A stretch of 64,000 bases of DNA, taken from NCBI GenBank assembly GCA_035262365.1, contig DATFSZ010000114.1, forward strand, positions 3,951-67,950, given 5' to 3'. Positions 22,306-50,872 of this stretch are shown here, piece by piece (the stretch's first letter is position 1; the number at the start of each line of letters is the position of its first letter). Both the position numbers and the translations under genes were made by a program. The stretch is from Candidatus Binataceae bacterium. GTDB lineage: Bacteria; Desulfobacterota; Binatia; Binatales; Binataceae. The notes below the pieces were generated by a model. That model searched no databases, had not been told where the DNA came from, and saw only the letters and a program-made list of their open reading frames with translations.

Positions 22306-24800
22306 TCAGTTCGGAACGCTCTGGTCCGGCTTGATTCCCCAGATTCCAGTGGCGTACTCGGCGATCGCGCGATCGCTTGAGAAGCGGCCCATGCGAGCAA
22401 CGTTCAGGACCGCTTTTTCTAGCCACAGTTGGCGATTTGAATAGTCCTCCCACACGCGATCCCGGATCGCCAGGTAAGAGGAGAAGTCCGCGAGATGGAA
22501 GTAGTGGTCGGAGCTCAATAGTGCGTCATATATCCATTTGAACAAGCCAGGCTCGTTGGGGTTAAACCGGTTGGCGGCAAGTTCGTCGAGCACGCGCCTT
22601 AACTTGGGGTCGCGTTCATAGATTTCACGCGGGCGGTAATTCCCGCTCTGGTTGAGAGTTTCAATCTCGTCGGCAGTGAGACCGAAAATATAAATGTTGT
22701 CGGCGCCGGCTTCCTCGAGGATTTCGATGTTGGCGCCATCGAGAGTGCCGATGGTGAGCGCACCGTTCATCGCGAACTTCATATTACCGGTTCCGGACGC
22801 TTCGGTGCCCGCGGTCGAAATTTGCTCGCTGAGATCCGCTGCTGCCACCAGTCTCTGCGCCACCGAAACCTTATAGTCGGGCACGAAAGCGACTTTCAGC
22901 AAGCCCTTGGTTGCGGGGTCGTGATTGATCGTGTCCGCCATCGAATTGATCAGTTTGATAATCATGCGCGCCGCCCAGTAACCCGGTGCCGCCTTTCCCG
23001 CAAAGATGTGCGTGCGCGCCACCTGGGGCGTTACTCCATCTTCGACGATAGCCAGATAATCGTTGATAATCGCGAGCACGAGCAGCAACTGGCGTTTATA
23101 CTCGTGGATGCGCTTGGCTTGCACGTCGAACAAGGATTCGGGGTCAACGCCGACATGGCCGGTCTTTTCGATAAGGGTCGCCAACACTTCCTTGTTGGCG
23201 CGCTTGACGGCGGCGAAACCGTCGAGGAAGCCGCGCTGGCCCGCGTAGCGTTCCAGTTCGCGCAGTTTCTCCAGGTCGCAGATCCAACCGGCGCCGATAT
23301 TGGCGGATATGAGCTGCGCGAGCCCCGGATTGGCCTCCAACAGCCATCGCCGCTGGGTCACGCCGTTGGTTTTGTTGTTGAATCGATCCGGCCACATGCG
23401 GGCGAAGTCCGGAACCAGCCGCGTTTTGACCAAGTCGGAGTGCAGTTTCGACACGCCATTGACCGAATGCGAACCGACGATCGCGAGATTCGCCATCCGT
23501 AGGTGCCGCTGTGGGCCCTCCTCGATCAGCGACATCCGCGCGATCCGCCCGCTGTCATCGGGCGAGAGGGCAATGGCGTCGTCCAGGAAGCGCCGGTTGA
23601 TCTCGTAAATGATTTCCAGATGGCGTGGCAGCATGCGCTCAAGCAGTTCCACCGGCCAGCGCTCCAGCGCCTCCGGCATCAGAGTATGATTGGTGTAGGC
23701 GCAGGTCGCGCGCGTGTGGCGCCAGGCGGTCTCCCATTCCAGATCGTGTTCGTCCACCAGCAGACGCATCAATTCGGCAATTGTCAGCGCCGGATGAGTA
23801 TCGTTGAGCTGGATAGCGACCTTGTCGGGAAATGCATCGAAATCTTTGTGCAGACGAAGATATTGCCGAACGATATCGCGAACGGCGCACGCAACGAAAA
23901 AATACTCCTGCTGCAGCCGCAATTCGCGCCCCGCAGCCATCGAGTCGGAGGGGTAGAGGACCTTGGAAATTGTTTCCGAGACTATCTTATCTTCAACGGC
24001 CTTGAAGTAGTCGCCCTCATTAAAAATTTTTATGTCAAAATAATCCGAAGCGCGCGCGGAATACAGGCGCAGCAGATTGACCGTGCGGCCGCCGTAGCCC
24101 ACGATCGGCAGGTCATGCGGGACGCCGACTATAACGCGCCAATCAAGCCACATCGGGTTGTAATTCCCGTACCGGTCGTGAGACTTTTCGATTCGGCCGT
24201 AAAGCGGGATTAAGCAGGCTTCCTCGGGCCGGGCAATCAGCCACGGTGAGTAGGCGGGGGACCACTGGTCTGGCTGTTCGAGTTGGTAGCCATTTTGTCG
24301 ATTTCCTGCTTGAACAGCCCGAACTCGTAATTTATTCCGTAACCGTAACCGGCAATACCCAGCGACGCCATCGAATCCAGAAAGCAAGCCGCCAGACGGC
24401 CAAGGCCCCCATTTCCCAATGCAGGGTCGGGTTCGTACTCCAAGATCCGGTCCAGGTCGACTCCGTGCCGATTCAGCAACTCGCGGCATCGCCGGGTAAG
24501 GTCCAGATTGGCCAGGTTGTTGTCCAACGAGCGGCCGACCAGAAACTCCATGGAAAGATAGTAAACGCGCTTCGCGTCGGCGCGGTCGAAAGCGTTCTGG
24601 CTCTCGACCATCCGCTCGACAATCAGGTCTCTGACCGCCAGCGAGACCGCCTTATACCAATCGCCGTCGCACATTTGCGAGCTGTCCCTGGCGATCGAGT
24701 ACCGGATGTGCCTCAGCACACGCGCCTCGAAAGCTTCAGACCGGGCTTCGAAAATGTTGCTCAAAACTGCCTGACTGGCGCGCTGCGCACTAGTTGCCAT
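22306..24800 (-). pseudogene. glgP: glycogen/maltodextrin phosphorylase, frameshifted near 24295-24300
   Basis: Track ORF 24237..24800 is the N-terminus (...LGNGGLGRLAACFLDSMASLGIAGYGYGINYEFGLFKQEID). Track ORF 22306..24489 continues it (QNGYQLEQPDQW... to the end). The span is 2495 nt (3n+2), and one extra nt would give an 831-aa protein. Confidence 0.85.
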
Positions 24801-26282: not shown

Positions 26283-27185
26283 TCATTCTGGCTGTTCGAT
26301 CATTCTGGAGAGATACTCACCATAACTGCTCTTGCCCATTCGCCGGGCAATAGCCAGAACGTCCTCGGCGTTGATATAGCCCATCCGGAACGCGATCTCT
26401 TCCAGGCAGGCGGTATGCAGTCCCTGGCGCTCCTGGATAGCCTGAATGAAGTTGGAAGCCTGATGCATCGACTCATGCGTTCCGGTGTCGAGCCAGGCGA
26501 ACCCGCGGCCCAGCTTTTCGACATGCAACACGCCGCGCCGAAGGTATTCAACGTTGACGTCGGTAATCTCGAGCTCGCCGCGCGCCGAAGGCTTGAGCGC
26601 GCGCGCGATGTCCACGACCTGGCGGTCGTAAAAATAAAGACCGGTCACCGCATAGGATGAGCGGGGATGAGCCGGTTTCTCCTCGATACTGATTGCGCGG
26701 CCCGCCTGATCGAACTCCACCACACCGTAGCGTTCCGGATCGCGCACGCGATAACCAAACACCGTGGCGCCGCTGACTCGGGCGGAAGCCCGCTGCAGAA
26801 ATTCGGGCAGACCGTGGCCGAAAAAGATATTGTCGCCCAGCGCCAGCGCCACGTTGTCTTTCCCGATGAAATCGCGGCCAATGATAAAGGCCTGCGCGAT
26901 GCCCTCGGGCTTGGGCTGTATCGCGTATTCGATATTTAGATTCCAGTCCGAGCCTGATCCGAGCAGCCGGCGAAAGCTTTCGCTCTCATGCGGCGCCGTG
27001 ATGAGCAAGATGTCGCGGATGCCGGCCATCATCAGGACCGACAGCGGGTAGTACAGCAGAGGCTTGTCATACACCGGCGCCAATTGTTTGTTGACCGCAC
27101 GGGTAACCGGGTAGAGCCGGGTTCCCGACCCGGCGGCGAGCAGGATTCCCTTGCGCCGCGATATGCCGTTGGATTCATTGCTCAT
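26283..27185 (-). CDS. rfbA: glucose-1-phosphate thymidylyltransferase
   Basis: [37 protein letters not shown] has an intact GxGTRL motif. The ATG at 27185 overlaps the upstream stop as ATGA. Confidence 0.9.
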
Positions 27186-28678
27186 GCTTTGCTCACCTCC
27201 CGTTGCGGATAGGAGCCGCCGCCCGTGGCCGGAATCCATGACGCGGTCTTGAACAACGCGCGCACGGCCGCGCCGAGCATCGCGATATCGTTCCATTCGC
27301 TGCGGACGCGCGCGTAATATCCCTCCGCCACTCGCTTCTCTTCATCGGGAGCCTCCGGCCCGAGGGCCAGCCGGGTGGGTCCGATCAGACCAACCGGAGC
27401 TTCCTCGCGCAGCCGCTCCCAGTCCGCTTCGAGCATGGCTTCCCTCTCGGGGGGCATCGCCTCCACCCCAATCATCCGAAGATTTCCTCCCAGCACCGCC
27501 AGCAACAGCGGCAACCACTTAAGCGCCGGAACCGGCGTTGCGCCTTCCAGCGTAACGAAAATTTTACGCCGCTCGATTCCGCCGGCCCGATCGAGCTTGT
27601 TGCCCACCAGACGCACCCGTCGAAACGGATGAGTCGGCCTACTAATGATCGAGGCGAGGAACATCAAGGGCCACAGCGGCGCTGAAATAAGCAATGCCAG
27701 GAGTCCCAAACATCGATGCATCAGGCTGGCGAAGCCAGTGGTGTAGCCGGTGCGCTTCAGACCGGAGAGCAGGAATGAGTCCACCACGCGGGTAACCGCC
27801 CCGGTCGATACGCTGATAAGATAATTGGTGGAAACGATCGAGTCGCATACATCCACCATTTCACCAACGTAGGTATGCGGCAGGATAACGGCGCAGCGCA
27901 GAGTCGACTGCCGGTCGATTATTACGTCGTCGTTGAGCACTACTTCGTTCATTATTTCCGCCGAGTGATCGATACGGCACCGGGAGCCAACGAAGATGCA
28001 GGTACCCTTGATTGCGGTGGCGGGCAGGCGCGACTGGCGTCCCAGGCGGACGCCCGGCGCGACCTCGCGTCCGGGAACGATCAAGGCTCCGAAGCGGCCC
28101 GCCGCCGCGTCGATATTGGCGCGATGGTATTGCGCCAGTGATGCGATTAGCGACACGTTGCCTTCGGGGAGGTCGAGTAGCGGAAGAGTCGCCGGCGAAG
28201 CGGCGCTTTGCTCGGGGTCGGCCATCAGCTGCCAGCTCGCCTGATCGCTCTGAGTAGCAAGTCTTATCGCCGCCGGCCGGCCTCCGTACACGGCTTCGGC
28301 CGGCTGACGACCGGCCATGGCGAGCGCGAGGAATTTCTTGAGCAGCGGAGTCCGCAGCAGGTCCCCGCGCATCATCAGGAAATGCTCGCTCAATTGGCCG
28401 GCCACCTTGCGCACTACCTGATCGGGGCTCTCATTGGGCCGCACCAGTACATATTCAAGACGCATCCCCCAGCGCGCACCGTTACCGAGTTCCTGTTCCA
28501 ACCGATCGGCATGCGCCGAGGCGATCACCAGGGCCTCGCGAATCCCCGCGAAGGCCAGGTCCTCGAGCGCAAAGACCACCAGCGGTTTACCTACCACCGG
28601 CAGCAGCGCCGCGCAGGTGCGCTCGGTAAGCGGCATCAGGGCTTTGCCCGGCCGATCGACGAACACAAGCGCTTGCAT
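27182..28678 (-). CDS. fusion protein: degenerate sugar-nucleotidyltransferase-like domain + hexapeptide-repeat region + degenerate monotopic phosphoglycosyltransferase-like C-terminal domain
   Basis: The ATG at 28678 shares one nt with the rfbB stop. The N-terminus [41 protein letters not shown] is NTP-transferase-like but lacks GxGTRL. The C-terminus has a hydrophobic helix ([22 protein letters not shown]). It then reads [25 protein letters not shown] where PGTs have [21 protein letters not shown]. Confidence 0.6.
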
Positions 28679-29784
28679 CAGTGCTCCAGAGTTTCTCCCC
28701 GTGTGGCCCCCAATCCCAGTCGTGTGCGGTCGTAACGTCCACTCTGAACCGCGGCGCACCAATCGGCGTTCGACAGGTACCAATGCACGGTGCGCCGGAT
28801 ACCGTCTTCGAACGAGCATTCGGGATGCCATCCCAACTCGCGGCGGATCTTGCTGATATCGGTTGCATAGCGGCGATCGTGTCCGGGGCGGTCAGGCACG
28901 AACACGCGCAGATCGCGGTAGTTCTTGACGCCGCGGGCGCGCAGAGCGGCGTTGCCCGCGGCCGGCAGTTTTTCCTCCAGCGCGGCGCAAATCGTATCGA
29001 CCATCTGCAAATTGTTGCGCTCGCTGCATCCGCCAATGTTGTATTTCTCGCCCAACCGTCCGACGCGCAACACTGCAAACAGGGCCGCGCAATGATCCTC
29101 CACGAACAGCCAGTCGCGCACGTTGAGACCGTCGCCATAGACGGGCAGTTCCCGGCCCGCCATCGCGTTGAGAACCATCAGCGGAACCAGCTTTTCGGGA
29201 TACTGGTAGTAACCATAGTTGTTGGTGCAGTTGGTAGTTAAAGTGGGTAGTTTGAAGGTCTCGTGATAGGCGCGTACGAAATGGTCGGCCGCGGCCTTGG
29301 ACGCGGCGTATGGCGAGTTGGGCGCATAATGCGTATCTTCGCGGAACAGACCTTCCGCGCCCAGGCTGCCGTACACCTCGTCGGTCGAGACCTGCACAAA
29401 CCTGAAGGAGCCTTGTTTGTCTCCGAGCCGCCGGTAGTATGCAAGCGCGGCCTCCAGCAATTCGAACGTGCCGGCCACGTTGGCGTCGAGGAAGTTGCGC
29501 GGTCCGTCGATCGAGCGGTCGACGTGAGTCTCCGCGGCGAAGTGAACAATCGCGGTGGGCCGAAACCGCTCCAGCGTGTTGTTGACCGCCTCCCGGTCGC
29601 AAATGTCGCCTTTTACGAACGCAAAGCGCCCATCATTTTCCACCTCCCTCAGGTTGAGCAGAGAGCCCGCGTAGGTAAGTTTGTCGAAGACGACCAGCGA
29701 CGCATGGCTGCGCCGGATCGCGAATCGCACGAAGTTGGATCCAATGAAACCGGCCCCCCCGGTTACCAGTATGGTTTCCATCAA
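28678..29784 (-). CDS. rfbB: dTDP-glucose 4,6-dehydratase
   Basis: MMETILVTGGAGFIGSNF...YAASKAAADHFVRAY is a typical RmlB. 368 aa. Confidence 0.9.
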   Translation of the reverse strand: MMETILVTGGAGFIGSNFVRFAIRRSHASLVVFDKLTYAGSLLNLREVENDGRFAFVKGDICDREAVNNTLERFRPTAIVHFAAETHVDRSIDGPRNFLDANVAGTFELLEAALAYYRRLGDKQGSFRFVQVSTDEVYGSLGAEGLFREDTHYAPNSPYAASKAAADHFVRAYHETFKLPTLTTNCTNNYGYYQYPEKLVPLMVLNAMAGRELPVYGDGLNVRDWLFVEDHCAALFAVLRVGRLGEKYNIGGCSERNNLQMVDTICAALEEKLPAAGNAALRARGVKNYRDLRVFVPDRPGHDRRYATDISKIRRELGWHPECSFEDGIRRTVHWYLSNADWCAAVQSGRYDRTRLGLGATRGETLEH

Positions 29785-29826: not shown

Positions 29827-30618
29827 CTAGTATGCCCCTCGGCCCAGCAGCACCGCCGGAATCGTCTTCAGCAGCAACTTGATATCCATCCACACCGACT
29901 GGGACTCGATATACGCGGAGTCCAGTTCCACCTGTTGCGCGAAGGGAATGTCGGAGCGTCCGGACACCTGCCAGACACAGGTGATGCCGGGTTTGACCTC
30001 GAGCCGGCGCCGATCGGACGGCGTATATTGGCTGACTTCGCTCGGCACCGGCGGCCGCGGACCCACCAGCGACATGTCGCCCTTCAAAACGTTCCATAGC
30101 TGCGGCAGTTCATCGATTGAGGCTCGGCGAATATAACGTCCCACCCTGGTTATGCGCGGATCCTGCTTCATCTTGAACGTAACGCCGCCGCTCATCTCGT
30201 TGCTTGCCGCCAGCGCAGTCTTGCGCGCCTCGGCATCTATATACATTGAGCGAAACTTGTATATCTGGAATGGTTTGCCCCATTTTCCGATTCGAGACTG
30301 TTTGAAAAGAACGGAGCCGGGCGAATCCATTCGAATGAGCAGTGCAATTGACGCCAGCATTGGCGCCAGAACGATTAGGAGGAAAACAGATCCGGCTATG
30401 TCTATCACACGTTTAAGTGCTCGCGTGCTGCCGATAACCGTCATCCACACCGACCGCTTGAACGCCGCCCGCAGCCGCACTGAGCGGCTCAGGCGCCCAC
30501 TTGAGGAGTAACGCTTGAGCAGACGGTCGCGGAACTCCAAGGCCTTCTGATGCTGCATCCTCGATTCCACGCGCGGTTTGTTTAAATCGACAAACGTTGG
30601 TTTGCGCTCGGCTTCCAT
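29827..30618 (-). CDS. canonical monotopic polyprenyl-phosphate phosphoglycosyltransferase (bacterial sugar transferase, PglC/WbaP-C type), priming enzyme
   Basis: It carries the full motif set: KFRSM, IDELPQLWNVLKGDMSLVGPRPP and KPGITCVWQVSGRS. Confidence 0.85.
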   Translation of the reverse strand: MEAERKPTFVDLNKPRVESRMQHQKALEFRDRLLKRYSSSGRLSRSVRLRAAFKRSVWMTVIGSTRALKRVIDIAGSVFLLIVLAPMLASIALLIRMDSPGSVLFKQSRIGKWGKPFQIYKFRSMYIDAEARKTALAASNEMSGGVTFKMKQDPRITRVGRYIRRASIDELPQLWNVLKGDMSLVGPRPPVPSEVSQYTPSDRRRLEVKPGITCVWQVSGRSDIPFAQQVELDSAYIESQSVWMDIKLLLKTIPAVLLGRGAY

Positions 30619-30650: not shown

Positions 30651-31970
30651 TTATTCAGGCTGGTCTCTGACTTCCTTCCATACGCGGTATAGAAATAGCG
30701 GGTTGCCGATCAGGTAGCGGCGCCACATTCGTCCCGGTTCTTGCGTGAGCCGCCATACCCATTCGAGGCCGATCTCGCGCAGCCACATTGGAGCGCGGGG
30801 GATGTTGCCGGAATAGAAGTCGAACAGGCCGCCGACGCCGATCAAAACCGGCGGCCAGAGTTCCGCGCGATGAGCCGCCAGCCACAAGTCTTGTCTGGGC
30901 GCGCCCATTGCCACGAGCAGGATTTTGGCACCAGACGAATTGATTTGATGTATTACGGCCGGCGTATCTGCGGCGGCAAAAAACCCGTCATGAGCTCCGG
31001 CGATCGGCAGTTGCAGATATTTCAGTTGCATCGCGGCAGCGGCCGCGGCGGCAACCGAGGGCTGCGCGCCGAGCAGAAAGAGCGGGATTTCTTCGGCGGC
31101 GGCACGCGCGCATAGTTGCGGGAAAAGGTCCGTGCCGTTAACGTTCTCGAGCATCGGCGTGCCTTTCATACGGCCGCCCAGATGGATTCCAATCCCGTCC
31201 GGCAGCACCCGCTCCGATTCCATCAGGACCTGACGGTAGTCGGAGTTAGTATAGGCTATGTTCAGACAGTCCGGATTCACGAAGCATAGTTGTGAGCGAG
31301 ATCCTGCCTGCGCGCGGCTGATAATCCATTCGACCGCCTCGTTCATACTGGTGTTGGTGATGTCGATGCCGAAGAAGCTCAGGATTGGGGCGGCTTCGGC
31401 GGCGGCGCTGTTACGCAGAACGGAGCCCGGTATCGCGCGGGCCATCAAGCCCAGGTCGGCGCGCAGGCTTTGGCCGTAATAGAACTGGCGGTCGAGGTCG
31501 TGCTCGCTCTCGTAGGCCACGCCTATGCCTTTGCGCAGCCAATAAGCTGAGACGATTCCGGGGCGAATCCAAAAGCGCACCTGTCCATCCAGCGGGACCG
31601 CCAATGCTTCCTGCGGAGTAAGCGGGCGCGGCCCTGCAAAGGACATGTCGCCCTTGACTACGTTGATCAGCACTGCCAACGAGCGGCCCGGGGCCGCGGT
31701 GGCGAAGGACAGCAGCGCAAAGGGCGTCCTGAAGCGGCCGACGGCCGCTGTGCGATCGAAGGCACGCCCCGTCTTTGCCCTGGCATAGATTGCGCGCAGC
31801 AGCATCAAGGGCGACAACGCCAGGAGTGCGGCCAACGCAGCGCTGAAGTCCAAAAGGCGGCGGACTGCTTCCTCCACGAATATCCAGGCGGCGGCGAACT
31901 GCCGCACCCGGGCGGCGCGCATGCGACGCGGCCGGCGCCCCAGCGGACCGGGTATTTCAACCGTCTCCAT
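30651..31970 (-). CDS. fusion: degenerate PGT-like N-terminal domain + WecG/TagA/CpsF (GT26) glycosyltransferase
   Basis: The N-terminal part reads RRLLDFSAALAALLALSPLMLL...LINVVKGDMSFAGPRP...RPGIVSAYWL but lacks KFRxM and the DE of DELPQ. The C-terminal part (LLVAMGAPRQDLW...GVGGLFDFYSGNIPRAPMWLREIGLEWVWRLTQEPGRMWRRY) is typical GT26. Confidence 0.7.
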   Translation of the reverse strand: METVEIPGPLGRRPRRMRAARVRQFAAAWIFVEEAVRRLLDFSAALAALLALSPLMLLRAIYARAKTGRAFDRTAAVGRFRTPFALLSFATAAPGRSLAVLINVVKGDMSFAGPRPLTPQEALAVPLDGQVRFWIRPGIVSAYWLRKGIGVAYESEHDLDRQFYYGQSLRADLGLMARAIPGSVLRNSAAAEAAPILSFFGIDITNTSMNEAVEWIISRAQAGSRSQLCFVNPDCLNIAYTNSDYRQVLMESERVLPDGIGIHLGGRMKGTPMLENVNGTDLFPQLCARAAAEEIPLFLLGAQPSVAAAAAAAMQLKYLQLPIAGAHDGFFAAADTPAVIHQINSSGAKILLVAMGAPRQDLWLAAHRAELWPPVLIGVGGLFDFYSGNIPRAPMWLREIGLEWVWRLTQEPGRMWRRYLIGNPLFLYRVWKEVRDQPE

Positions 31971-33524: not shown

Positions 33525-34708
33525 TTGGCTCCCCCCTGGGTGTTGTGGCGGGCCGTACGCACCCAATCGGCGTTCTTGCGGGCCGCCCGGCCAATCGCCG
33601 GCGCCAGCGCGAGTTTCCAGATGATATAAAAGGGAGCGAACGCCAGCGCCGCGAAATCGGCGATCGTACCCCCGCCCACCACGATCGCCGCCCCGACGTG
33701 TGCAACGACCACCCCCAGCGCCGCCGCCCCATACCATCGCGCAGCCGCCAAAGGTATCGCCAGCGTCAGCATCAGCAGGGCGGCGTGAAAGGCCAGCGGC
33801 AGCAGCAGCAATTCCAAAAGCGGCTCGGCCAGCGCGAACCGCCCGGCGCCAAGGTCAGCCAGCAGAATCGGAACCTGCTCGCGGATCATTCGTATCCGTC
33901 CACCCTCCCAGCGGGCGCGCTGCGTGCCCGCCGCCGATCCCGCGGCCGGCATCTCACCCCACACCGAGGTCCGATCGGCGAAGCGTACTCTTTTGCCGGC
34001 GCGGACCAGGCGCAGGTGATATTCGAGATCCTCGACCACCGAATGCGCGTCGTAAGGAACCGCGCTCAGCGTTGCGCGGGTAAGTGCGAAGCCATTGCCC
34101 AGGATGCCGGCCGACAGCCGCAGCCGATCGCGTCCGCGCGGTCGCAGCACGTTAAACGCCATCAGCGCGACGTTCATCAAGCGGGTGCGCATCGAAGCGC
34201 CCGGATTGAGCACTCCGTAGCGGCATTGCACCGCGTCCGCGCCGCCGGCCAGCATGCGCTCAATCTCAGCGACGAAGTTCGGCTCGACGGCCGAATCGGC
34301 GTCGACCACCGCCAGTGCGTCGAATCCCTCCGCGAGCAGGATCCCGAAGGCATACCTGAGCGCGTAGCCCTTGCCGCGGCGGGTGCGGTCCTCGCGCACG
34401 ATCACCCGCGCGCCCGCGCCGCCCGCGCGCTCGGCGGTGCGGTCCTCGCAGTTGTCGGCCACCACCACGATTGAATGCCGCGAATCGGCCGGCACGCATC
34501 GCCTGAGGCTCGTGACCGCGCCGGCAACCCCGCGCTCCTCGTTGTGAGCGGGCACGACCACCGCGATGCGGCCGACGTGCCGAGTGGAGGTTGGCTCGGT
34601 GCGGGCGGGAAGGCATCCGGCAACCGTGAGGATGATCAACTCGACGCATCCGGGCAGCGTCAGAGCACAAAGCGCAAGTGCCGCCAGCGCCCCAATTGCC
34701 GCGATCAA
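33521..34708 (-). CDS. membrane-embedded glycosyltransferase family 2
   Basis: An N-terminal TM segment, then IAVVVPAHNEE...VVADNCEDRT...VVDADS, then C-terminal TM segments. The TTG start forms a TTGA overlap with the upstream stop. Confidence 0.75.
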   Translation of the reverse strand: MIAAIGALAALALCALTLPGCVELIILTVAGCLPARTEPTSTRHVGRIAVVVPAHNEERGVAGAVTSLRRCVPADSRHSIVVVADNCEDRTAERAGGAGARVIVREDRTRRGKGYALRYAFGILLAEGFDALAVVDADSAVEPNFVAEIERMLAGGADAVQCRYGVLNPGASMRTRLMNVALMAFNVLRPRGRDRLRLSAGILGNGFALTRATLSAVPYDAHSVVEDLEYHLRLVRAGKRVRFADRTSVWGEMPAAGSAAGTQRARWEGGRIRMIREQVPILLADLGAGRFALAEPLLELLLLPLAFHAALLMLTLAIPLAAARWYGAAALGVVVAHVGAAIVVGGGTIADFAALAFAPFYIIWKLALAPAIGRAARKNADWVRTARHNTQGGAK

Positions 34709-36936
34709 GGCTGCTGTCCTCCCGGTTGCGCCGCCGTCAAGGCCGCCAGTCCGTATGGCGGCAGCGTCACCATTACGCCGTTGCCAACCACGGTGGGCAG
34801 GGACTGCGCGATTTCCACCTGAGGGCGCTCCTCGTTGGTCGAAAACGGCGACTTCGATTCCAGCCGCAGGATTCGAGCGGGTAGCCCAGCTCCCCGTTGT
34901 CCGGGGAATTCAATCCGGACCGTCATCGGCTTATCCGCCGCCGAGGCCACTACTGCGGACCATCGCGTCCCGTTGAGGAAGGCCGCGGCCGAGACCTTTG
35001 AGCTGTTGGCCGAAACCGGGTAGAAGCTGCCGCCGAAGGCTTGGTTTAGCATCGCGATTGCAAGTCCGGTTGGACGCAAACGCGGGGCGCCGGCCAGATC
35101 GCGCGTGACGCCCCACAGCCGGGCGAAGCCGCCGCGCGCTGCGGTTGACGCGTCAAACCCGGCCAACACGTAGGGACACTGGATTGTGGCGCCGCGGTTA
35201 AGCGACTCAATTATCCGCCACGCAATCGCGGTGCCCGACGCCGCGCCCGCGATCAGCGAATTGCGCTCGGAATCGGGCGCGTCGCCGCCGATGGTATGGA
35301 GGTTGACTTCGTAAACCGCGAGGTCCTTCTTGAACCGCTCCACAATGCGAGCGATCGCCGGCAGGCCCGCTGCGGAATCCTCGAACAGGGCCGCCAGAGG
35401 TTCGGGCGGCGGCGCGGCCGCCAGCGAATACAAAAAGTATGGAGCGACAGCCAACGTGTCGGCGGCCGGTGCATTCGCGGCCAGGCGCGCGTCAAGGCCG
35501 GGGTTGGCGTACTGCCCGCCCACGATCATCCGCAGCGGCGGCGCCGCTCCGGCGCCCTCGCGGATCAGCCGGAACGCGCGGCTGGCCACGGCGCCATAGG
35601 TTTGCGGATCCGGTATGGCCGCAGGCCGGAAAATCGCGTTCCAGTTCTCGTTGCCGAATTCGAGCGCGATCTCGTCGAATCGCCGCGCGGCGTTTTGCGC
35701 CGCCAGAAATTTGCCCAGCCCAACCAGCTCCGAGTCCGAGAAGGTAGCCGGCACCACGATCCACGGACGCGCATCGACGCGCCGGCACAGATCGAGAAAA
35801 TCAGGCAGCGAATAACCAAACTGGGTCTGGTCGCCGGGCCGGTAGCGGGTGGGATGGCGCGCAAAGGCCGGCGCGATCCGGTTGGCCAGCGTATCGGCCA
35901 ACTGTCCCTGCCAGTCGCGCAGGTAGCCCGGATGAAGCGCGCGCAACGCGGCGATCACTTCTGCGCGAAACGGTGTCGGCGCGGAATTCATGGCGCGCAA
36001 ATCGACGTCGTCCAAAAGCACGCGGCCCCCAGCCGTCCCCGCCGCGGAAAAGCGCAGCTCCAACGTCGCGCACGGCGCCTCCTCGTCCTGGCCGTCGAAA
36101 TCAAGCGAAGTCATCTGCCACGAACCGGAGGGCTCAATCCTGCGGTCGAGAAACGGCGCAGACCCGACCCGGCCGAAGCTAACCCGTAGCGCGGCTTGTG
36201 CGCTTCCGATCGGCGCCATGACGCCGTCCACGCGGCTCCAGAACAGCAGACGCCACGGCCCGTTGACCGGCAGCAACTTGCCGGCACGATCGGTAATCGC
36301 GTCCAGGTAGGAACTCACCTGCGCCGGAGCGCCGGTGCCCAGCGTCAAACTCAAGGCGCTGTGGCCGGGGCTGCCGGGCCGATGTTCGGCGTTCTCGACG
36401 CTGACCCGGTGGGCGGAGGACCGCGCTACCCACCAATTGGCGGCAGGCCCCGGCTCGCTCTCCCGCGTAATCGCGACCACGTCGCCGGCGGCCAGATGAG
36501 CCGGCATCGGGTCGGCTTCATAAAACGGCATCCCATGCGGCCCGGCCGGCTTGGAGCCCACCAACACTCCCTCAATCCCGGCGCCGGCGCCGCTGCGCAC
36601 GTCGTAATGCGCGCCGCGCCAGAAATCGCCGGGCCGTGCCAGCCAGGATTGGTCGTCCTCGAAACCGCGCGCGTCAACTTCACTGATGATCACAAGCGCG
36701 CGGTCGATGGTGGTCTCGAAGCCCGGATTCATCAGCACGTTGGAGCTGAGCTGCTCGGCTCCCCATGAAGTCCAGGTGCCCAGGTTAACTCCGAGCCGCG
36801 CGACGTTGCGCCGCGCCGGCTGCGCGCTCACTCTGAGAAGGATCGGCTGGCCGGGGCGCGGCGCGTTTGGTCGCGCGATCAGGACCGACAACGCCGCCAG
36901 GCTCACGGCACCCAGGATGAAGCTGCGCGCCCTCAC
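34705..36936 (-). CDS. secreted hypothetical protein, possible clan GH-A glycoside hydrolase
   Basis: Track ORF 34705..37470. Its first 178 codons overlap the upstream GT gene, so I prefer the GTG at 36936 (GTGA overlap). That start gives a signal peptide, VRARSFILGAVSLAALSVLIARP. Candidate acid/base motif IALEFGNENWN and candidate nucleophile LAVYEVNLH. Confidence 0.45.
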   Translation of the reverse strand: MRARSFILGAVSLAALSVLIARPNAPRPGQPILLRVSAQPARRNVARLGVNLGTWTSWGAEQLSSNVLMNPGFETTIDRALVIISEVDARGFEDDQSWLARPGDFWRGAHYDVRSGAGAGIEGVLVGSKPAGPHGMPFYEADPMPAHLAAGDVVAITRESEPGPAANWWVARSSAHRVSVENAEHRPGSPGHSALSLTLGTGAPAQVSSYLDAITDRAGKLLPVNGPWRLLFWSRVDGVMAPIGSAQAALRVSFGRVGSAPFLDRRIEPSGSWQMTSLDFDGQDEEAPCATLELRFSAAGTAGGRVLLDDVDLRAMNSAPTPFRAEVIAALRALHPGYLRDWQGQLADTLANRIAPAFARHPTRYRPGDQTQFGYSLPDFLDLCRRVDARPWIVVPATFSDSELVGLGKFLAAQNAARRFDEIALEFGNENWNAIFRPAAIPDPQTYGAVASRAFRLIREGAGAAPPLRMIVGGQYANPGLDARLAANAPAADTLAVAPYFLYSLAAAPPPEPLAALFEDSAAGLPAIARIVERFKKDLAVYEVNLHTIGGDAPDSERNSLIAGAASGTAIAWRIIESLNRGATIQCPYVLAGFDASTAARGGFARLWGVTRDLAGAPRLRPTGLAIAMLNQAFGGSFYPVSANSSKVSAAAFLNGTRWSAVVASAADKPMTVRIEFPGQRGAGLPARILRLESKSPFSTNEERPQVEIAQSLPTVVGNGVMVTLPPYGLAALTAAQPGGQQP

Positions 36937-38222
36937 CCGTCGGCCTCCAGCCGGCGCCGGAAGATCTCCCCCAAACGTGCGATGTTGAGGTCCAGATTGT
37001 AATGCTCCACCACGCGCCTGCGGCCCGTCTGCGCTAGGCGCCGGCGCAGTTCGGTGTCGTCCATCAGGCGGCGCAACGCGTTGGCCAGCGCGGCTTCGTC
37101 GGAAGGGGCGACCAGCAGGCCGTCCAGCCCGTCGCGGATCAGTTCCGGGATGCCGGTGATGAAGGTGGCGACGCACGGGATCTCCATCGCCATCGCCTCC
37201 ATCAGCACCACCGGGATGCCTTCGGCGAAACTGGCCAGCGCGAAAACGTCGGCAGCCTCGTAGATGGGGCGGATACGATCGGGATTGACGGATCCTTCGA
37301 ACACGACCGCGCCGTCCAGGCCGCGCCGGCGCGCGTCCTCTTGCAGCGCGCTCCGGTCGGGTCCGTCGCCCACCAGGCGCAGGCGCACCCGGCGTCCCTC
37401 GCGCACCAGCCGGTCGACCGCGGCAATCAGGATGTGCTGTCCCTTGGCCGCGACCAGCCGGCCCACGCACAGTATTTCGAATCGATCCGACCCCGCATGC
37501 GCGGCCCGCGGCGCGAATTCATCCAGGAAGACTCCGAGCGGCGCGACTTCCAACTTCCCCCACTGCTCGGGAGGCGACAGTTTCATCAACTGGCTGCGCG
37601 CGTACATGCCGATACAGCAGATGAACGACGCGCCCGCGATTTTTTCCGCCAGGCAGTAACCCGGCGCGTCATAAAACTCGTCGGGTCCGTGCACGGTGAG
37701 CGACAAACCGATCGGATAGGCGCGGGCGGCGATCAGCCCGACGGTGGATGCGGGGGTGGCGAAGTGAACGTGCAGATGCCGCACAGCCGCCGCGCGCATC
37801 CATTCGCCGATCATCACCGCCTCGACGAAGTAGAACATCCCGTAAAGCAGCTTTTTGAGGTCGGTGCCGCCCAGGCGCAACGCGAACATCATCGCGGCCA
37901 GGTACTTAAGCGGGCGGCGCGCGATGGCCGCGAGATGGGCGCTCAGCGCTGCGCTTATTCCGGCCGGTTTGACCATAAAGGTGGCCGCCGCCTCCTCGCG
38001 CTCCTGCCCGGTGAGTTTTTCCGGCGGCCGGTCGGGATGGTTGATCGAAGCGGTGTGAATCTCGAAGCCCAACTCGCGAAGGCGCCGCACCTCGCGCAAT
38101 ATGAAGGTATGCGAGATGCGCGGGTATTCGCTCACCAGGTAGGCGACCTGCACGCGCCCATTGGAATTGCGCACGGTTTGCCCCCCGCCCGCGCCGATCG
38201 CACCTGATTGCCGATCCGCCAT
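36933..38222 (-). CDS. glycosyltransferase family 4 (GT-B, WcaL-like)
   Basis: VAYLVSEYPRISHTFILREV at the N-terminus. C-terminal GT1/GT4 block ASFAEGIPVVLMEAMAMEIPCVAT...PELI. Confidence 0.8.
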   Translation of the reverse strand: MADRQSGAIGAGGGQTVRNSNGRVQVAYLVSEYPRISHTFILREVRRLRELGFEIHTASINHPDRPPEKLTGQEREEAAATFMVKPAGISAALSAHLAAIARRPLKYLAAMMFALRLGGTDLKKLLYGMFYFVEAVMIGEWMRAAAVRHLHVHFATPASTVGLIAARAYPIGLSLTVHGPDEFYDAPGYCLAEKIAGASFICCIGMYARSQLMKLSPPEQWGKLEVAPLGVFLDEFAPRAAHAGSDRFEILCVGRLVAAKGQHILIAAVDRLVREGRRVRLRLVGDGPDRSALQEDARRRGLDGAVVFEGSVNPDRIRPIYEAADVFALASFAEGIPVVLMEAMAMEIPCVATFITGIPELIRDGLDGLLVAPSDEAALANALRRLMDDTELRRRLAQTGRRRVVEHYNLDLNIARLGEIFRRRLEADG

Positions 38223-39578
38223 CAGTACATCACCCGCTTAAAGCGCGGCACCGGCGCCGCGACCGGCTCGCAGCCGGCCTGCGCGGCGTCCCCGCTCCGG
38301 CTCAGCACTAGTCCTTCGGCCCATCCGGTCATCAGAAACAGCACCTGCACCGCCTGCATCCCGAGATACACGGTGGCGATCGACACCATCACGGCCAGGT
38401 ATCCGCCCAGCAATGAGAACGCGAGCGACCCGCCCGGCGAGGACCATGGACGCGCCCATCCGTAGCGCCCCAGCCGCGCGATCATCCAGATGAAGATGGA
38501 CAGCAACAGGGCCAGCGCCGTGACCCCGTGCATCAGCGATAGCAGCAGGTAGTAGTTGTCGATCGACGGCATCCCGGGCACCTTGGGCCATCCGTTGCGG
38601 CCCCAGCCGAAGGCGGCATGCTCCTGCGCGATCGCGATATATTTGTCGAGCAATTCCTTGCGGTACGCGGCGGTCTCCTGCGAGACGGATTTTGCGCCCG
38701 CGCGCCCGACCGAGACGTAGGACTTGAACGCCAGGTAGGCCGGGGTTCCGACCGCGAACACCAGCACCAGGGTGATGGTCAGCGCGCGCGCGATTGGCCG
38801 CGCGCCCCAGCAGGATCGCGATCATGCCGAAGAATTCGCCGATCCAGGGTCCGCGGCACAGCGTCATGAAGCTGCCCGCCGCGATTGCATAGGTCAGGAA
38901 GCGCGCAGGCTTGATCGGCAGCCACTTCATCCGGCCCTCCCAGTAGCCGTTCCATTCCAGCCAGCGCTGGACCCGGTAGGCGACCGCGAAGATCACTCCG
39001 GCCAGGATCGCGTGCCCGTAGGGTCCGGCGATACGCGCAAAGCCGTAGCGGAAGGTGGTGACCCATCCGGTCTGCCCGGGGAAAAAGCGGCTTAGGATCA
39101 TCTGCGCCGGATTGGAACCCATCCTGAATTCGAACACCGAGACGACGGCGACCGCCGCCATCAGTGCGCAAAACTTGCGTGCGAACTCGACGCGTAGTCC
39201 CTGCGGCTCCACCAGCGCCTTGGCCAGCACATAAGGCGCGATGATATTGGCCACGCAGTCGAACATCAGGTTTTGCGAATCGGAGTAGTTGGTGTTGATG
39301 AACTCCGAATACGCCATCTCCAACGCGAGGCCGAAGATCAGCAGGTCGGTTATCGAAAAGCGCCAGCGCCCCCCGCCGCGCATCACGAACAGCGCGAAGA
39401 TCGGAATGATCGCCGCTTCATTGAAAGTGGGATCGGGCAGTCCCGGCAGCACCCAGCGATAGTAGTCGGGCAGCAGTAGGAGGACGGGCAGATACACGTC
39501 GATCAGCGCCAGGGCGGGACCGCGGCGCAAACACACGATAAGCGCGATCAGTCCCGGGATACCGGCGATTGCGGCCAT
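38222..39578 (-). pseudogene. Wzy/O-antigen-ligase-like polytopic membrane protein, frame broken in a (CG)n run at about 38782-38792
   Basis: Track ORF 38238..39701 is membrane-protein-like from the ATG at 39578 up to ...FGMIAILLGRAANRARA, then turns into Arg/Gly-rich nonsense. Track ORF 38222..38767 continues as hydrophobic sequence (..VLVFAVGTPAYLAF...). The span is 3n+1 nt. It is the only polymerase candidate in the locus. Confidence 0.6.
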
Positions 39579-40813
39579 CAGCGGCTCCCCTCGAACAGGC
39601 CCCGGATCGCCTGGGCCCGCAGGCCGTACCAGAAGGTGCGCGTCTCGCGCAGCGCGCGCTCGCGGGCGCCGGCCGCGACGGCAGCCAACGTCGGCCGGCA
39701 CTGGTCAAGCCGCTGAAGCTCGGCCGCCAACGCTTCGGCGTCATCCAGCGGACAGATCCATCCGTCCACGCCCTCGCGCACCGTGTCGATACTGGCCTCG
39801 GTGCGAAAAGCGACCACCGGAGTGCCGCCCGCCATCGCATCATAAAAGGCGCGCCCGAAGTCCGTGGTGCGATGCGGCATCGCGAACAGATGGCCCGCCG
39901 CGATGGCGCCATAAATCGCAGATCCAGGCGGCAAAGCCCCCTTGAGCGACACCCGATCGCCCACCTTCAGCCGCTCAATCATCACGTTCAACCGGCCGAT
40001 GGCCGGGCCTTCGCCGTAAATCCGGATTTCCACGCCGACGCCGCGCTGCTTGAGGATCGCAGCCGCGGTAATCAGGAACTCGAATCCCTTAAGCGCGCGC
40101 AGACGCGCGGCGCCCACCACGATTAACCGATCGCCGTCGAGGATCGAGCGCCGCTTGCGTTCAAAATCGCCCCGGGGGATCACGTCGCTCGCTTCATGGC
40201 CGGGCTGGCGAATCGCGATTGAGTTGCGCGCCGCCTGGCGGTAGCGGCGCACAGTGGCCGGGGTATGCATGAAGGTCAGCGAGGCGCTGGCCGCGCTGTC
40301 GCGCACGCGCCGATCCATGATGCGCAGCTGCCAGTCACGACGCATTCGCTGCAGCCGGCCGCTGGACATGCGGTTGTACTCCCATCCCAGCATGTCGACG
40401 AAATCCTCGGCGATTACGAACAGGGTCTTTTTGCCCAACTTGACCGCTTTGTCATGGGCGTAGGCCAGCGCCAGATAGGGCGGGAAGAAATTGCTGGTAT
40501 GCACCAGGTCGGCCCCGGCCACGGCGTCGCGCAGGACGCGCCGTATGCTGAGCCATTTGGGCAAATCGCGCGAGGTGCGGATAGCGCTAAAGCCGATGAA
40601 TTCGAATCCGTCGCCGCTGTTGACCGAGCCGGTTGCCGGGCCCCATCCGTGCAGCTCGGCCGCCGACACCTGCGGTGCGGCGATCGTGATCGGCCCGATG
40701 GAGTCGCGCAGACCTTGAAGGTCGCGCAGCCACAACGCGTCGAGTTCCACCGCTGCGGCGCTGCGCGCAAACGGGATGTGCGTCACCTGAAGGTAGCGGA
40801 TCGGCGCACTCAT
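39578..40813 (-). CDS. glycosyltransferase family 4
   Basis: GT-B C-terminal block GRAFYDAMAGGTPVVAF. 411 aa. ATGA overlap with the upstream gene. Confidence 0.8.
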   Translation of the reverse strand: MSAPIRYLQVTHIPFARSAAAVELDALWLRDLQGLRDSIGPITIAAPQVSAAELHGWGPATGSVNSGDGFEFIGFSAIRTSRDLPKWLSIRRVLRDAVAGADLVHTSNFFPPYLALAYAHDKAVKLGKKTLFVIAEDFVDMLGWEYNRMSSGRLQRMRRDWQLRIMDRRVRDSAASASLTFMHTPATVRRYRQAARNSIAIRQPGHEASDVIPRGDFERKRRSILDGDRLIVVGAARLRALKGFEFLITAAAILKQRGVGVEIRIYGEGPAIGRLNVMIERLKVGDRVSLKGALPPGSAIYGAIAAGHLFAMPHRTTDFGRAFYDAMAGGTPVVAFRTEASIDTVREGVDGWICPLDDAEALAAELQRLDQCRPTLAAVAAGARERALRETRTFWYGLRAQAIRGLFEGSR

Positions 40814-43774: not shown

Positions 43775-44844
43775 GGCGTGTCTCCGCGCAGGAGGCGGCG
43801 ATAGTCGGCGATCCGGGCCGCCGCCGAGAACCGGGTCGCGAGCGTGTGCCGCCCGCCGCGCACAACGCTGTTGAGCAGATCGGGATGGGCCCCTGCCAGT
43901 TCGACCAGCCGCGCGGCCAGCGAGCCGCAATCATCGGCGCGAAAGCGAAAGCCGCTGACCCCGTCCTCGACCAGGTCTCCCGCGCCGCCGCGGTCCGGCA
44001 CCAGCGCCGGAACCCCGGCCGCCATTGCTTCGAGGATCGCCACGCCGAAGGGCTCGGTGGGACACAGATGCACCAGCAGGTCGGAGGCGGCCAGACGCGC
44101 TTGCACGTTGGGTTGAAATCCCTCGATCCTGATTTGCGGATGAGTGGCGGCGGCACGCGCGCGCAGCGCCTCGATATCGTAGCCGCTGCCCAGCACCTCG
44201 ACGCTCAGGGTGCGCAGCGCCGGCTCGCGATCGAAGGCGTCGAGCAGTAGATCGACGCGCTTTTGCGGATCCAGGCGCGAGACCACCAGCAACCGCCGCA
44301 CGCCGGCGCGGCAAAAAGGCGCGCGCCGCGGCGCCGCGGCCAACTGGGTGTCGGGCAGAAAATTCTCGATTACCCGGATTGTAGAGGCGGCGACGCCGTT
44401 GGCCACCAGGCGCGCGCGCACGAAGCACGACACTGCCACGAAAACCACGCCCAGGCGGTTGAGGCGGCGCTTGCGGCCGTAGCTGTCGCGTTCATCGGCG
44501 CCGCCGTGGACGACGTGCAGATGCGGCAGGCGGCGATGCCACAGCGTGCTCCACGCCGCGGCGGCCAGCGAATGAATCACGCCGGTGGCGATGAAGGCCA
44601 GGCGCCGGTTGCGGGCGAAATACGGCATCAGTTTCATCGCCACGTCCCGTGCGCCGCCAAATGGCACCGCGCCGAAGCCCATACGGGCCGCCTCGCGCAG
44701 CGCCGGGCCGGGCGGCGCAAAGATCGTGACCGCGAACTCATCGGCCACGCCCGCCGCGGTTGCCAACGCCATGCGCTCGGTCCCGTACAGATTGCCGCTG
44801 TGCAGGACGTATAAAAGCGGCACGCCGCCATTATTCGGCCTCAT
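43771..44844 (-). CDS. glycosyltransferase family 4
   Basis: LLYVLHSGNLYGTERMAL at the N-terminus and CPTEPFGVAILEAMAAGVPALV in the C-terminal half. Confidence 0.8.
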   Translation of the reverse strand: MRPNNGGVPLLYVLHSGNLYGTERMALATAAGVADEFAVTIFAPPGPALREAARMGFGAVPFGGARDVAMKLMPYFARNRRLAFIATGVIHSLAAAAWSTLWHRRLPHLHVVHGGADERDSYGRKRRLNRLGVVFVAVSCFVRARLVANGVAASTIRVIENFLPDTQLAAAPRRAPFCRAGVRRLLVVSRLDPQKRVDLLLDAFDREPALRTLSVEVLGSGYDIEALRARAAATHPQIRIEGFQPNVQARLAASDLLVHLCPTEPFGVAILEAMAAGVPALVPDRGGAGDLVEDGVSGFRFRADDCGSLAARLVELAGAHPDLLNSVVRGGRHTLATRFSAAARIADYRRLLRGDTP

Positions 44845-48603: not shown

Positions 48604-49655
48604 TTGAACATCCCCACCGCGAACAGCATGGTCTGGGTCACCGGCGTGAACTGCGACAGGAAGTACCCGACCTTGGCCATCCGGCTTTGCGGCACATAGA
48701 TGACGTCGCCTTCCTCCAGCATGTAGTTGTGCTCGCCGCGCGCGCGCAGGTACTCGTTGATGTCGATGGTTTTCTGCACGCCGATCGAGGGGCGCGCCAG
48801 CACCACGCGGTTGCGGGCGCCGTTGACGGTAAGGCCGCCGGCCTGCGCCACCGCGTCCATGAACGACATGTCGGGAGTCAGCCGGTAGGCGCCCGGCTTG
48901 TTGACCTCGCCCATCACGTAGATCAGCTGGTCGTCGGCGTCGGGTATATAGATGATGTCGCCGCGGCGCATTCTGATGTTGAGGCTCAGGTCGCGGCCCT
49001 TGAGCAGAGCCTTTAGATTGATCCAGACGATCTCGTGGCGTCCGCGGAAGATCGCGCAGCGGTTGAGCGCCGCCTTGTCCGCGCCGACCCCGCCCACCGG
49101 CAGCGTGCCGGCCTCGGCCAGCGCGTCCAGCAGATGCAGCGGGCCGCTGAAATGGATGGTCCCGGGCTTGCTGACGCGCCCCAGCACCAGCACCGAGTTG
49201 CTGGCATAGCTCTGCACCTCAACCGTGGCCACCGGATCCAGGTAGTCGGTGGCCAGCGCGCGGCTGAGCTGCGCTCCGGCCTGGTCGGGCGTCAGGTAGG
49301 CCAGTTGCTGCGATCCTACAACTGGCAGCGATATCCTACCATCGGGACCGATTGTATGTTTGCCCGACAAGTCCTCATGCCCCCAGACGGTCACGTTGAC
49401 TTCGTCGCCGGGACCGATCGTATAGGGCCCCGCCGAAACGCCGGTTTCGAATTGCTGCAAAGCCCGCTGGGCGTCGAATGGAGCCGCCTCATGGCGCTGG
49501 GCGGCCTGGAAGGCGCGGTAGTCGTCGGAGGGCACATCGGACAGGCGTGCACTGGAACAGGAGATCGCGGCGACGGCCATCAGGCACAGTCCCGCGGCCC
49601 ACGCGCTTGCGGCGCTCAGCGGTTGTAAAAAACGCACAACTTGACTGCGTCGCAT
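48600..49655 (-). CDS. wza: polysaccharide export outer-membrane lipoprotein (Wza family)
   Basis: Track ORF 48600..50006. I prefer the ATG at 49655 (MRRSQVVRFLQPLSAASAWAAGLCLMAVAAISC, lipoprotein signal). Poly_export/SLBB-like body: YTIGPGDEVNVTVWGHEDLSG...GDIIYIP...GDVIYVPQS. Confidence 0.8.
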   Translation of the reverse strand: MRRSQVVRFLQPLSAASAWAAGLCLMAVAAISCSSARLSDVPSDDYRAFQAAQRHEAAPFDAQRALQQFETGVSAGPYTIGPGDEVNVTVWGHEDLSGKHTIGPDGRISLPVVGSQQLAYLTPDQAGAQLSRALATDYLDPVATVEVQSYASNSVLVLGRVSKPGTIHFSGPLHLLDALAEAGTLPVGGVGADKAALNRCAIFRGRHEIVWINLKALLKGRDLSLNIRMRRGDIIYIPDADDQLIYVMGEVNKPGAYRLTPDMSFMDAVAQAGGLTVNGARNRVVLARPSIGVQKTIDINEYLRARGEHNYMLEEGDVIYVPQSRMAKVGYFLSQFTPVTQTMLFAVGMFK

Positions 49656-49667
49656 TGCGCGGTGAGG

Positions 49668-50515: not shown

Positions 50516-50524
50516 CGCGGAGCT

Positions 50525-50866: not shown

Positions 50867-50872
50867 GTGTCT

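Follow-up and report, generated by a model that had tools for sequence, protein, structure and literature searches.

The exopolysaccharide (EPS) locus considered here lies in a window of 64,000 nucleotides, the whole stretch of DNA that was analysed, from a Candidatus Binataceae bacterium (GenBank assembly GCA_035262365.1, contig DATFSZ010000114.1, positions 3,951 to 67,950 of the forward strand). The setting is a long minus-strand operon of the Wzx/Wzy type which runs from Wza (48600-50006) and also contains a MatE-like flippase, GT4 and GT2 glycosyltransferases and hexapeptide acyltransferases. Three genes of this locus, named A, B and X in the following, are the subject of this analysis: gene A joins a dead phosphoglycosyltransferase (PGT) domain to a glycosyltransferase of family GT26, gene B is a live small PGT, and gene X codes for a protein of 498 residues in which a nucleotidyltransferase (NT) fold and a short left-handed β-helix (LbH) are followed by a second dead PGT domain. 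The product of gene X is most likely a non-catalytic, membrane-anchored accessory subunit of the EPS priming complex, as suggested by the loss of catalytic residues from both enzyme folds, by its modelled membrane module and by the conserved company of genes A and B.

Gene X is read on the minus strand; it opens with an ATG at 28678 and closes with a stop codon at 27182. As the initial annotation of the window had stated, the frame is coupled on both sides: the stop of rfbB and the start of gene X overlap as TGATG, the TGA of gene X and the start of rfbA overlap as ATGA, and Shine-Dalgarno sequences of the GGAG type lie 5' of both the gene X and the rfbA start. A longer version of 549 residues beginning at 28831 was rejected, as its extension lies inside or overlapping rfbB and the N-termini of homologues align at M1. 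TIGRFAM and Pfam scores (Table 1) agree with the identities given before to RfbA, RfbB and the canonical PGT next to gene X. RfbA has an intact GSGTRL signature and is followed by RfbC and RfbD.

The N-terminal third of gene X had been recognised by its sugar-nucleotidyltransferase pattern, and profile methods bear this out. PF00483 matches residues 11-131 with E 5e-9 and 36.5 bits against a cut-off of 21.2, and hhalign aligns the NT part with the RfbA of the window at 97% probability. The Pfam match is confined to profile positions 10-135 of 245, and gene X has no counterpart to the remaining half, which bears the sugar-phosphate site and the second metal site. A family profile built from 53 sequences and searched against the sequences of the PDB finds GMPPB, a cyanobacterial UDP-glucose pyrophosphorylase, eIF2B epsilon and gamma and RmlA with its N-terminal part, and PglC and WbaP alone with its C-terminal part. 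Structural comparison by Foldseek gives for the N-terminal 300 residues tlr0611, VTC1, GMPPA/GMPPB, ADP-glucose pyrophosphorylase and eIF2B. NCBIfam yields only sub-threshold matches to NT-LbH enzymes (Arch_glmU, rmlA_long and a mannose-1-phosphate guanylyltransferase), and a family-specific NCBIfam model for gene X does not exist.

The LbH that follows is visible as a ladder of β-strands at residues 204-297 of the AlphaFold model, with a pLDDT above 90. The sequence models which fall on residues 214-289 (PF25087, PF25084 and PF00132, that is GMPPB_C, LbH_EIF2B and Hexapep) all stay below their cut-offs, and the hexapeptide families score weakly, with 16.3 bits against 27 for PF00132 and 15.8 against 23.3 for Hexapep_GlmU. 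The best of the LbH models is of the non-catalytic GMPPB_C type.

The AlphaFold2 model of the full-length protein has a pLDDT of 85 and a disordered linker at residues 300-314. Since the N-terminal part dominates a Foldseek search with this model, which returns NT-LbH structures only (E 1e-16 to 1e-12), the C-terminal domain was also modelled separately. The model of residues 311-498 (pLDDT 87.6, pTM 0.80) has PglC and WbaP as its only full-length matches in the PDB, with TM-scores of 0.65-0.66 over 168-204 aligned columns, the next match having an E of 0.9. The same two proteins alone are found when a profile of the C-terminal 188 residues is searched against the PDB (PglC with E 5e-6). Two modelled helices, 314-331 and 335-346, flank a break at S332-x-P334-L-W-P. 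In an alignment of 176 near-full-length relatives of gene X, which is the basis of all residue counts given here, S332 is kept in 151 sequences and P334 in 170. As modelled, the C-terminus of gene X is thus a complete monotopic PGT fold with a re-entrant membrane helix, in line with the PGT-type module that had been proposed from the order of sequence blocks.

The whole fold, including the Ser-x-Pro break, is common to the C-terminal 185 residues of gene X, to PglC (PDB 8E37, 8G1N) and to the catalytic domain of WbaP (8T53). Unlike these enzymes, gene X has lost the Asp-Glu dyad, the arginine of the PRP motif and about 45 residues that carry KFRSM and DPRIT, and it remains below the Pfam cut-off: PF02397 matches residues 389-476 (profile positions 91-178 of 179) with E 0.0047 and a score of 16.9 against 27. 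The two dyad columns read R/K/A/S and then H/Y/R/W in all 176 relatives, none of which has DE; in the window the position is K387-W388. The IDELPQL of the live PGT thereby falls on LKWLPLL and GPRP on GVEA, followed by APVGLIGP, and the family reading at the GPRP position is G-V-x-P. These substitutions align as the initial annotation had claimed. Its further statement that KFRSM is simply replaced by FVTLEG does not stand, as a profile-profile alignment with the live PGT family places a deletion of about 45 residues there, from KFRSM through DPRITRVGRxIRR.

The NT fold is degraded as well. A degenerate stretch of twelve residues in gene X stands where RfbA has its 12-residue signature, a substitution that also aligns as stated initially; in the hhalign comparison the G-S-G-T-R-L of RfbA is set against D-R-P-G-K-A-L in gene X and A-D-R-x-G-x-(E/A)-L in the family consensus. 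The column of the catalytic Arg holds Glu in 95 of the 176 relatives and Ala in 32. The column of the Lys after the signature (K25 in RmlA numbering) is variable (V/P/A/L). The EKP motif for the sugar phosphate and the WxDxG motif for the metal are absent from the consensus of the gene X family. What the NT part does keep are structural motifs which are common to active enzymes, namely GKP, GDGxRWG, RGD and the YHRANLD linker helix, together with two extra charged positions specific to the family, R9 and R104. Proper profile alignment, on which hhalign and HMMER agree, leaves no intact catalytic residue in either fold, and the double degeneracy proposed for the single protein extends to its relatives. 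Judged by these alignments, gene X is very probably non-catalytic in both enzyme folds, with a loss that is family-wide rather than a local accident.

Catalysis of another kind would be an alternative. The remodelled NT pocket (D8-R9, K31, R69, R104-G-D106) or the LbH of such a cryptic enzyme would act on a lipid-linked intermediate by phospho-, acyl- or glycosyl-transfer, with the dead PGT domain holding the undecaprenyl-pyrophosphate-linked substrate. The former active-site positions are strongly conserved throughout the family, the PGT fold natively binds polyprenyl phosphate, and the same dead fold is found on a bona fide transferase in gene A, which would be sensible if the fold presents a lipid-linked acceptor. 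Against this, the conserved NT residues are mostly the fold-determining motifs shared with active enzymes and form no new constellation, the LbH comes nearest to the short GMPPB_C type, which is non-catalytic, and scores below all acyltransferase cut-offs, and forms of gene X without the PGT fold exist. In addition, no enzyme of the NT fold is known to work without the phosphate-binding loop, which gene X has lost. An enzymatic role of this kind is considered quite unlikely.

The gene X family is large. A word-indexed search returned 56 clusters of about 490 residues with the same architecture and 35-76% identity, and an exhaustive profile search found at least 1156 representatives of 50%-identity clusters at E<=1e-30 in several phyla; the best 150 of these all have E<1e-77 and are mostly full length. 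Carriers include Candidatus Binataceae (73% identity), Holophagales, a Phycisphaerales metagenome-assembled genome (MAG), many Competibacteraceae, Chromatiaceae, Methylococcales and Beggiatoaceae, with Candidatus Marithrix and Thiodiazotropha among the named ones and Methylovulum miyakonense HT12, M. psychrotolerans Sph1 and Thiocapsa sp. KS1 in culture. Databases name the homologues "NDP-sugar synthase" or "mannose-1-phosphate guanylyltransferase/phosphomannomutase", names which are untenable for this family.

This breadth also bears on the view that gene X is a relic or an artefact, be it a pseudogene in decay, a chimera made in assembly or a gene carried neutrally in the operon. Such a view could draw on the disappearance of catalytic residues from both enzyme folds and on the closest GTDB relative, in which the gene is broken across three frames. 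However, hundreds of independent contigs, drawn from several phyla, have the full-length architecture, all three domains are conserved, synteny and translational coupling are kept, and the AlphaFold models are confident. Relative to the orthologue in locus L059 (65% amino acid identity) the nonsynonymous divergence dN is low, at 0.26 overall and 0.30, 0.13 and 0.28 for the NT, LbH and pseudo-PGT domains, compared with 0.14 for RfbA and 0.17 for RfbC; these are dN values per domain against a single comparator for which synonymous sites are saturated, and not a formal dN/dS. Chimera and decaying pseudogene were rejected on these grounds, in agreement with the earlier treatment of the frame as a real gene, and the relic view as a whole is effectively refuted. 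The broken copy itself (L035:9965-11483, Candidatus Binataceae SMAG_U6541, 73% identity) may reflect errors of the MAG or pseudogenisation.

The genomic surroundings of gene X point to priming. The order A, B, X was found in all five homologue contexts first examined. In a survey seeded with gene X, covering 43 species-level loci with at least 2.6 kb of upstream sequence, gene B was present in 37 and both A and B in 35. The reciprocal survey, seeded with gene A in 56 metagenome loci with enough downstream sequence, found gene X within 2.6 kb in 54, inverted in one and missing in one. The tie to the priming PGT that the initial annotation had suggested is thus well supported, with the trio in 35/43 and about 55/56 loci. 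In Competibacteraceae, Methylococcales, Chromatiaceae, Holophagales and Phycisphaerales gene X directly follows gene B, often after a gap of 3 nt and with no rfb gene nearby, and start/stop overlaps or 3-nt gaps between the three genes recur in orthologous loci.

Gene fusions add to this picture. Genes A and B form one open reading frame (ORF) in L055-L057 and in 11 of the 56 metagenome loci (about one fifth). The junction in L056 was read directly and shows pseudo-PGT, GT26 and PGT in succession, the last with SIDELPQL...GPRP intact. Such single-ORF fusions provide evidence of the Rosetta-stone kind for a joint function of genes A and B. Four loci with a fused A-B carry a short gene X of NT and LbH only; the forms read in L055, L057 and L131 stop just past the FLLA motif at the linker, L055 and L057 belonging to Thiodiazotropha. 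No separate pseudo-PGT ORF was found near the short forms, even at E<=10.

Table 1. Coordinates of genes and domains in the window and of the related forms at orthologous loci (L numbers).
Feature	Coordinates	Strand	Remarks
Gene X	27182..28678	-	498-aa pseudo-nucleotidyltransferase, LbH and pseudo-PGT fusion; stop codon included
Gene X, NT-fold domain (residues 1-200)	28079..28678	-	degenerate signature; sugar-binding half truncated
Gene X, short LbH (residues 201-300)	27779..28078	-	GMPPB_C / eIF2B-epsilon type
Gene X, flexible linker (residues 301-313)	27740..27778	-	pLDDT <50 at residues 300-314; short homologues end here
Gene X, pseudo-PGT domain (residues 314-480)	27239..27739	-	re-entrant helix-break-helix at 314-346, then β-hairpin
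Gene B, live small PGT	29827..30618	-	KFRSM, DE, GPRP and PGIT intact; PF02397 E 1.5e-69
Gene A, pseudo-PGT and WecG/TagA/CpsF (GT26) glycosyltransferase	30651..31970	-	PF03808 E 4e-60
rfbB, dTDP-glucose 4,6-dehydratase	28678..29784	-	TIGR01181 458.8 bits, cut-off 365
rfbA, glucose-1-phosphate thymidylyltransferase	26283..27185	-	TIGR01207 478 bits, cut-off 360; PF00483 E 1e-72
Fused A-B, 712-781 aa	L055:7821-9956; L056:7644-9986; L057:7673-9901		pseudo-PGT, GT26, live PGT
Fused A-B among 11/56 metagenome loci	e.g. L088, L096, L101, L117, L118, L126, L128, L130, L131
Short gene X (NT-LbH only)	L055:9872-10918; L057:9926-10912; L131:7823-8830; L132		all four with fused A-B
Receiver-PP2C/SpoIIE phosphatase	50873-52090	-
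STAS protein	50525-50866	-
RsbW-like HATPase_c_2 kinase	50003-50515	-

The neighbourhood of the dTDP-rhamnose genes, by comparison, is lineage-specific. A true rfbB directly before gene X was seen in 4 of the 43 species-level loci. Synteny places rfbB between genes B and X in Binataceae-like lineages only, and the order rfbB-X-rfbACD is confined to these (L004-L007, L009, L011, L019, L035, L058, L064, L068). Linkage to rfb was therefore rejected as the defining context of gene X, and a general link to dTDP-rhamnose synthesis, as proposed initially, does not hold.

These counts weigh on the proposal that gene X is a sensor of a nucleotide sugar or nucleotide (dTDP-rhamnose, a UDP-sugar or UMP) which gates the priming PGT and so links dTDP-rhamnose synthesis to priming. 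In the window and in relatives of the Binataceae type gene X is coupled in translation to rfbB on one side and to rfbA on the other, product-sensing inactive NT-LbH paralogues exist (GMPPA, one of the Foldseek matches, is an example), the regulatory domain of WbaP binds UMP, UDP and UTP (PMC10312794), and the charged residues D8, R9, R104 and D106 still stand at pocket positions. Yet the trio without rfb is the rule, the Pfam match to the NT profile does not go beyond its first half, and the GxGTR loop, the K25 equivalent, EKP and WxDxG are gone, while Glu at the place of the catalytic Arg in more than half of the relatives argues against phosphate binding. With neither the phosphate-binding loop nor the Lys present, and with the half of the pocket for the sugar phosphate missing, the sensor idea of the initial annotation finds no support at the level of residues and is unlikely.

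Gene B, which the initial annotation had correctly recognised as a canonical PGT, gives 305.6 bits on TIGR03025 and passes this model, though over profile positions 252-445 of 445 only. By its sequence gene B is a catalytic domain of the large-PGT type that is devoid of the N-terminal regulatory region of WbaP-like enzymes; it scores as the large EPS type without the four transmembrane segments and the regulatory region. Ahead of its re-entrant helix gene B has an N-terminal extension of some 65 residues that is conserved among orthologues, as well as an invariant GRGAY at the C-terminus.

The dead PGT domain of gene A, like the trio itself, had been missed. The N-terminus of gene A covers only profile positions 91-174 of 179 of PF02397, with DE changed to LA, GPRP kept and the segment from KFRSM to DPRIT deleted, and the domain is conserved in all orthologues. 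When compared by hhalign, the dead domains of genes X and A align nearly without gaps at 95% probability (E 2.7e-8); the dead domain of gene X aligns with the live PGT at 85% (E 6.5e-6) and with large gaps. As the two dead domains are nearer to each other than to the live PGT, they have the same shortened design and probably descend from a common dead ancestor.

Taken together, these observations favour gene X as a non-catalytic partner of the A/B priming pair, a reading that is held with about even confidence; any specific mechanism commands much less. The dead PGT domain would serve as a docking module at the membrane interface, placing gene X, and likewise gene A, beside the live gene B, and docking through this domain may be dispensable in some lineages with a fused A-B. 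The NT-LbH part would be the functional core, a platform for oligomerisation or regulation of the kind that GMPPA provides for GMPPB, or as in GalF, GlgD and eIF2B gamma/epsilon. Because gene B is without a WbaP-like regulatory region, regulation in trans by gene X is attractive though unproven: gene X may stand in, as a separate protein, for the regulatory domain that large PGTs such as WbaP have in cis. Through the trio the first step, in which a sugar-1-phosphate is placed onto undecaprenyl phosphate, would be coupled to the second, the transfer by GT26. In the lineage of the window, insertion of rfbBACD around gene X would have led to its co-translation with the supply of dTDP-rhamnose.

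Several points weigh against this partnership. Conservation of D8, R9, R104 and D106 at former active-site positions could point to a new site for a ligand or for catalysis instead of a pocket that has been filled in. In six species (L018, L027, L032, L044, L048 and L049, Competibacteraceae and related MAGs) genes A and B are absent from 10 kb upstream and gene X is intact and well conserved, so it may function without adjacent partners; in L048, the locus that was annotated, it directly follows a phosphopantetheinyl-transferase ORF of 173 residues, compared with 297 in L001, where this gene precedes gene A. Small PGTs of the PglC type are reported to be functional monomers (PMC10312794), and hetero-association through PGT folds is without precedent. 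Everything beyond the folds, the residue losses, the re-entrant module, the conservation and the reciprocal linkage is inferred.

A more specific form of the partnership would unite A, B and X in a priming complex at the membrane interface, in which one live PGT fold is joined by two dead ones. These two would serve for docking and for handing off the lipid carrier, channelling the undecaprenyl-pyrophosphate-linked sugar from the small PGT to GT26, and the dead NT-LbH would gate or oligomerise the assembly, possibly under the control of the RsbU/V/W-like partner-switching genes that accompany the locus. This detailed model is possible though rather improbable. If it is true, pseudo-PGTs would be a new class of pseudoenzymes and a trans-acting counterpart of the regulatory domain of large PGTs.

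Partner-switching genes do stand at the head of the EPS operon (window 50003-52090, minus strand), directly upstream of Wza. Competibacter, too, has this set upstream of its trio (L001:1-980). A PHP-STAS protein follows gene X in L009 (L009:9467-10615), and a PHP protein is found at 52492-53277 on the plus strand of the window. These genes may exert post-translational control of the locus.

Precedents exist for the parts of this arrangement. Inactive NT-LbH paralogues are already known, as are PGTs fused to other sugar-pathway domains. GMPPA, which regulates GMPPB (PDB 7D72-7D74), resembles gene X in combining an NT fold and a short LbH with lost catalysis; it acts as a partner or regulator of the active enzyme and is among the best matches of gene X in structure and sequence. 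GalF, GlgD and eIF2B gamma/epsilon are inactive relatives of a similar kind that form a functional class rather than one family, and gene X shares with such non-catalytic regulatory subunits an NT(-LbH) fold from which catalysis has been lost. GMPPA still binds GDP-mannose; unlike it, gene X has lost the nucleotide-binding loop itself and carries a membrane PGT-like domain. The conserved partner also differs, being a PGT and a GT26 enzyme for gene X and an active NT paralogue for GMPPA; such a paralogue (rfbA) is next to gene X in a minority of lineages only.

In the BiPGT class, as far as the available part of PMC11626204 (citing O'Toole et al. 2021) describes it, an acetyltransferase or a glycosyltransferase is fused to the core of a monotopic PGT. 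Gene X likewise has a soluble sugar-pathway domain on a monotopic PGT fold, and gene A and the A-B fusions resemble the fusions of a glycosyltransferase with a PGT. A BiPGT has an active core and a second catalytic domain, whereas both halves of gene X are without catalytic residues, and the fusions listed in that part of the paper do not include one with an NT-LbH partner. Post-translational control of an initiating PGT is known from two precedents, the nucleotide-sensing and dimerising regulatory domain (DUF) of the large PGT WbaP (PMC10312794) and EpsW, which acts on EpsZ in an activation system of the initiating PGT (PMC12802240). Like the role proposed for gene X, which is inferred, these are non-catalytic modules that control an initiating PGT; their folds, Rossmann-like in the WbaP domain and a receiver domain in EpsW, are unrelated to NT-LbH.

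The searchable literature, which does not include the 2021 catalogue of PGT fusions (O'Toole et al.), contains no dead monotopic PGT fold, no NT-LbH fusion to one and no A-B-X module, so that within this scope the initial statement that no protein with this combination has been characterised still applies. Within it, no paper brings PGTs together with pseudoenzymes, or with both catalytic inactivity and nucleotidyltransferases, and papers that mention PF02397 together with PF00483 appear to be unrelated by their titles and abstracts.

Bacterial control of the first committed step of polysaccharide synthesis, which consumes the carrier lipid, has been explained for monotopic PGTs by a few mechanisms only, namely the nucleotide-sensing domain of WbaP and EpsW-EpsZ. 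New to the searchable literature are a large, mislabelled family across phyla, a second family of dead PGT domains on a GT26 fusion, and a three-gene module with natural fusions. That pseudo-PGT domains may be modules for membrane docking of, or complex formation with, a small PGT is now a testable idea. For annotation, members of the gene X family should not be counted as sugar-nucleotide synthases or PGTs, for example when the pathway of Competibacter EPS in activated sludge is reconstructed.

Some further observations concern other parts of the window and related loci. The glycogen phosphorylase gene (22306-24800, minus strand) is split by a frameshift, with the first 170 residues in 24237-24800 and the rest in 22306-24489; compared with the intact orthologue of 831 residues in L059, the two pieces meet exactly at ...FKQEID|NGYQLEQPD, and the split is due to an indel of sequencing or assembly or to a recent mutation. 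Three large ORFs of the EPS operon, all on the minus strand, are without a Pfam match (34705-37470, 921 aa; 38238-39701, 487 aa; 44831-47557, 908 aa) and may be polymerase or chain-length/export components, or novel. About 6 kb downstream of its trio, Competibacter has an exosortase together with an XrtH-associated gene, and also a Sel1 protein (L001:15220-16986 and equivalents).

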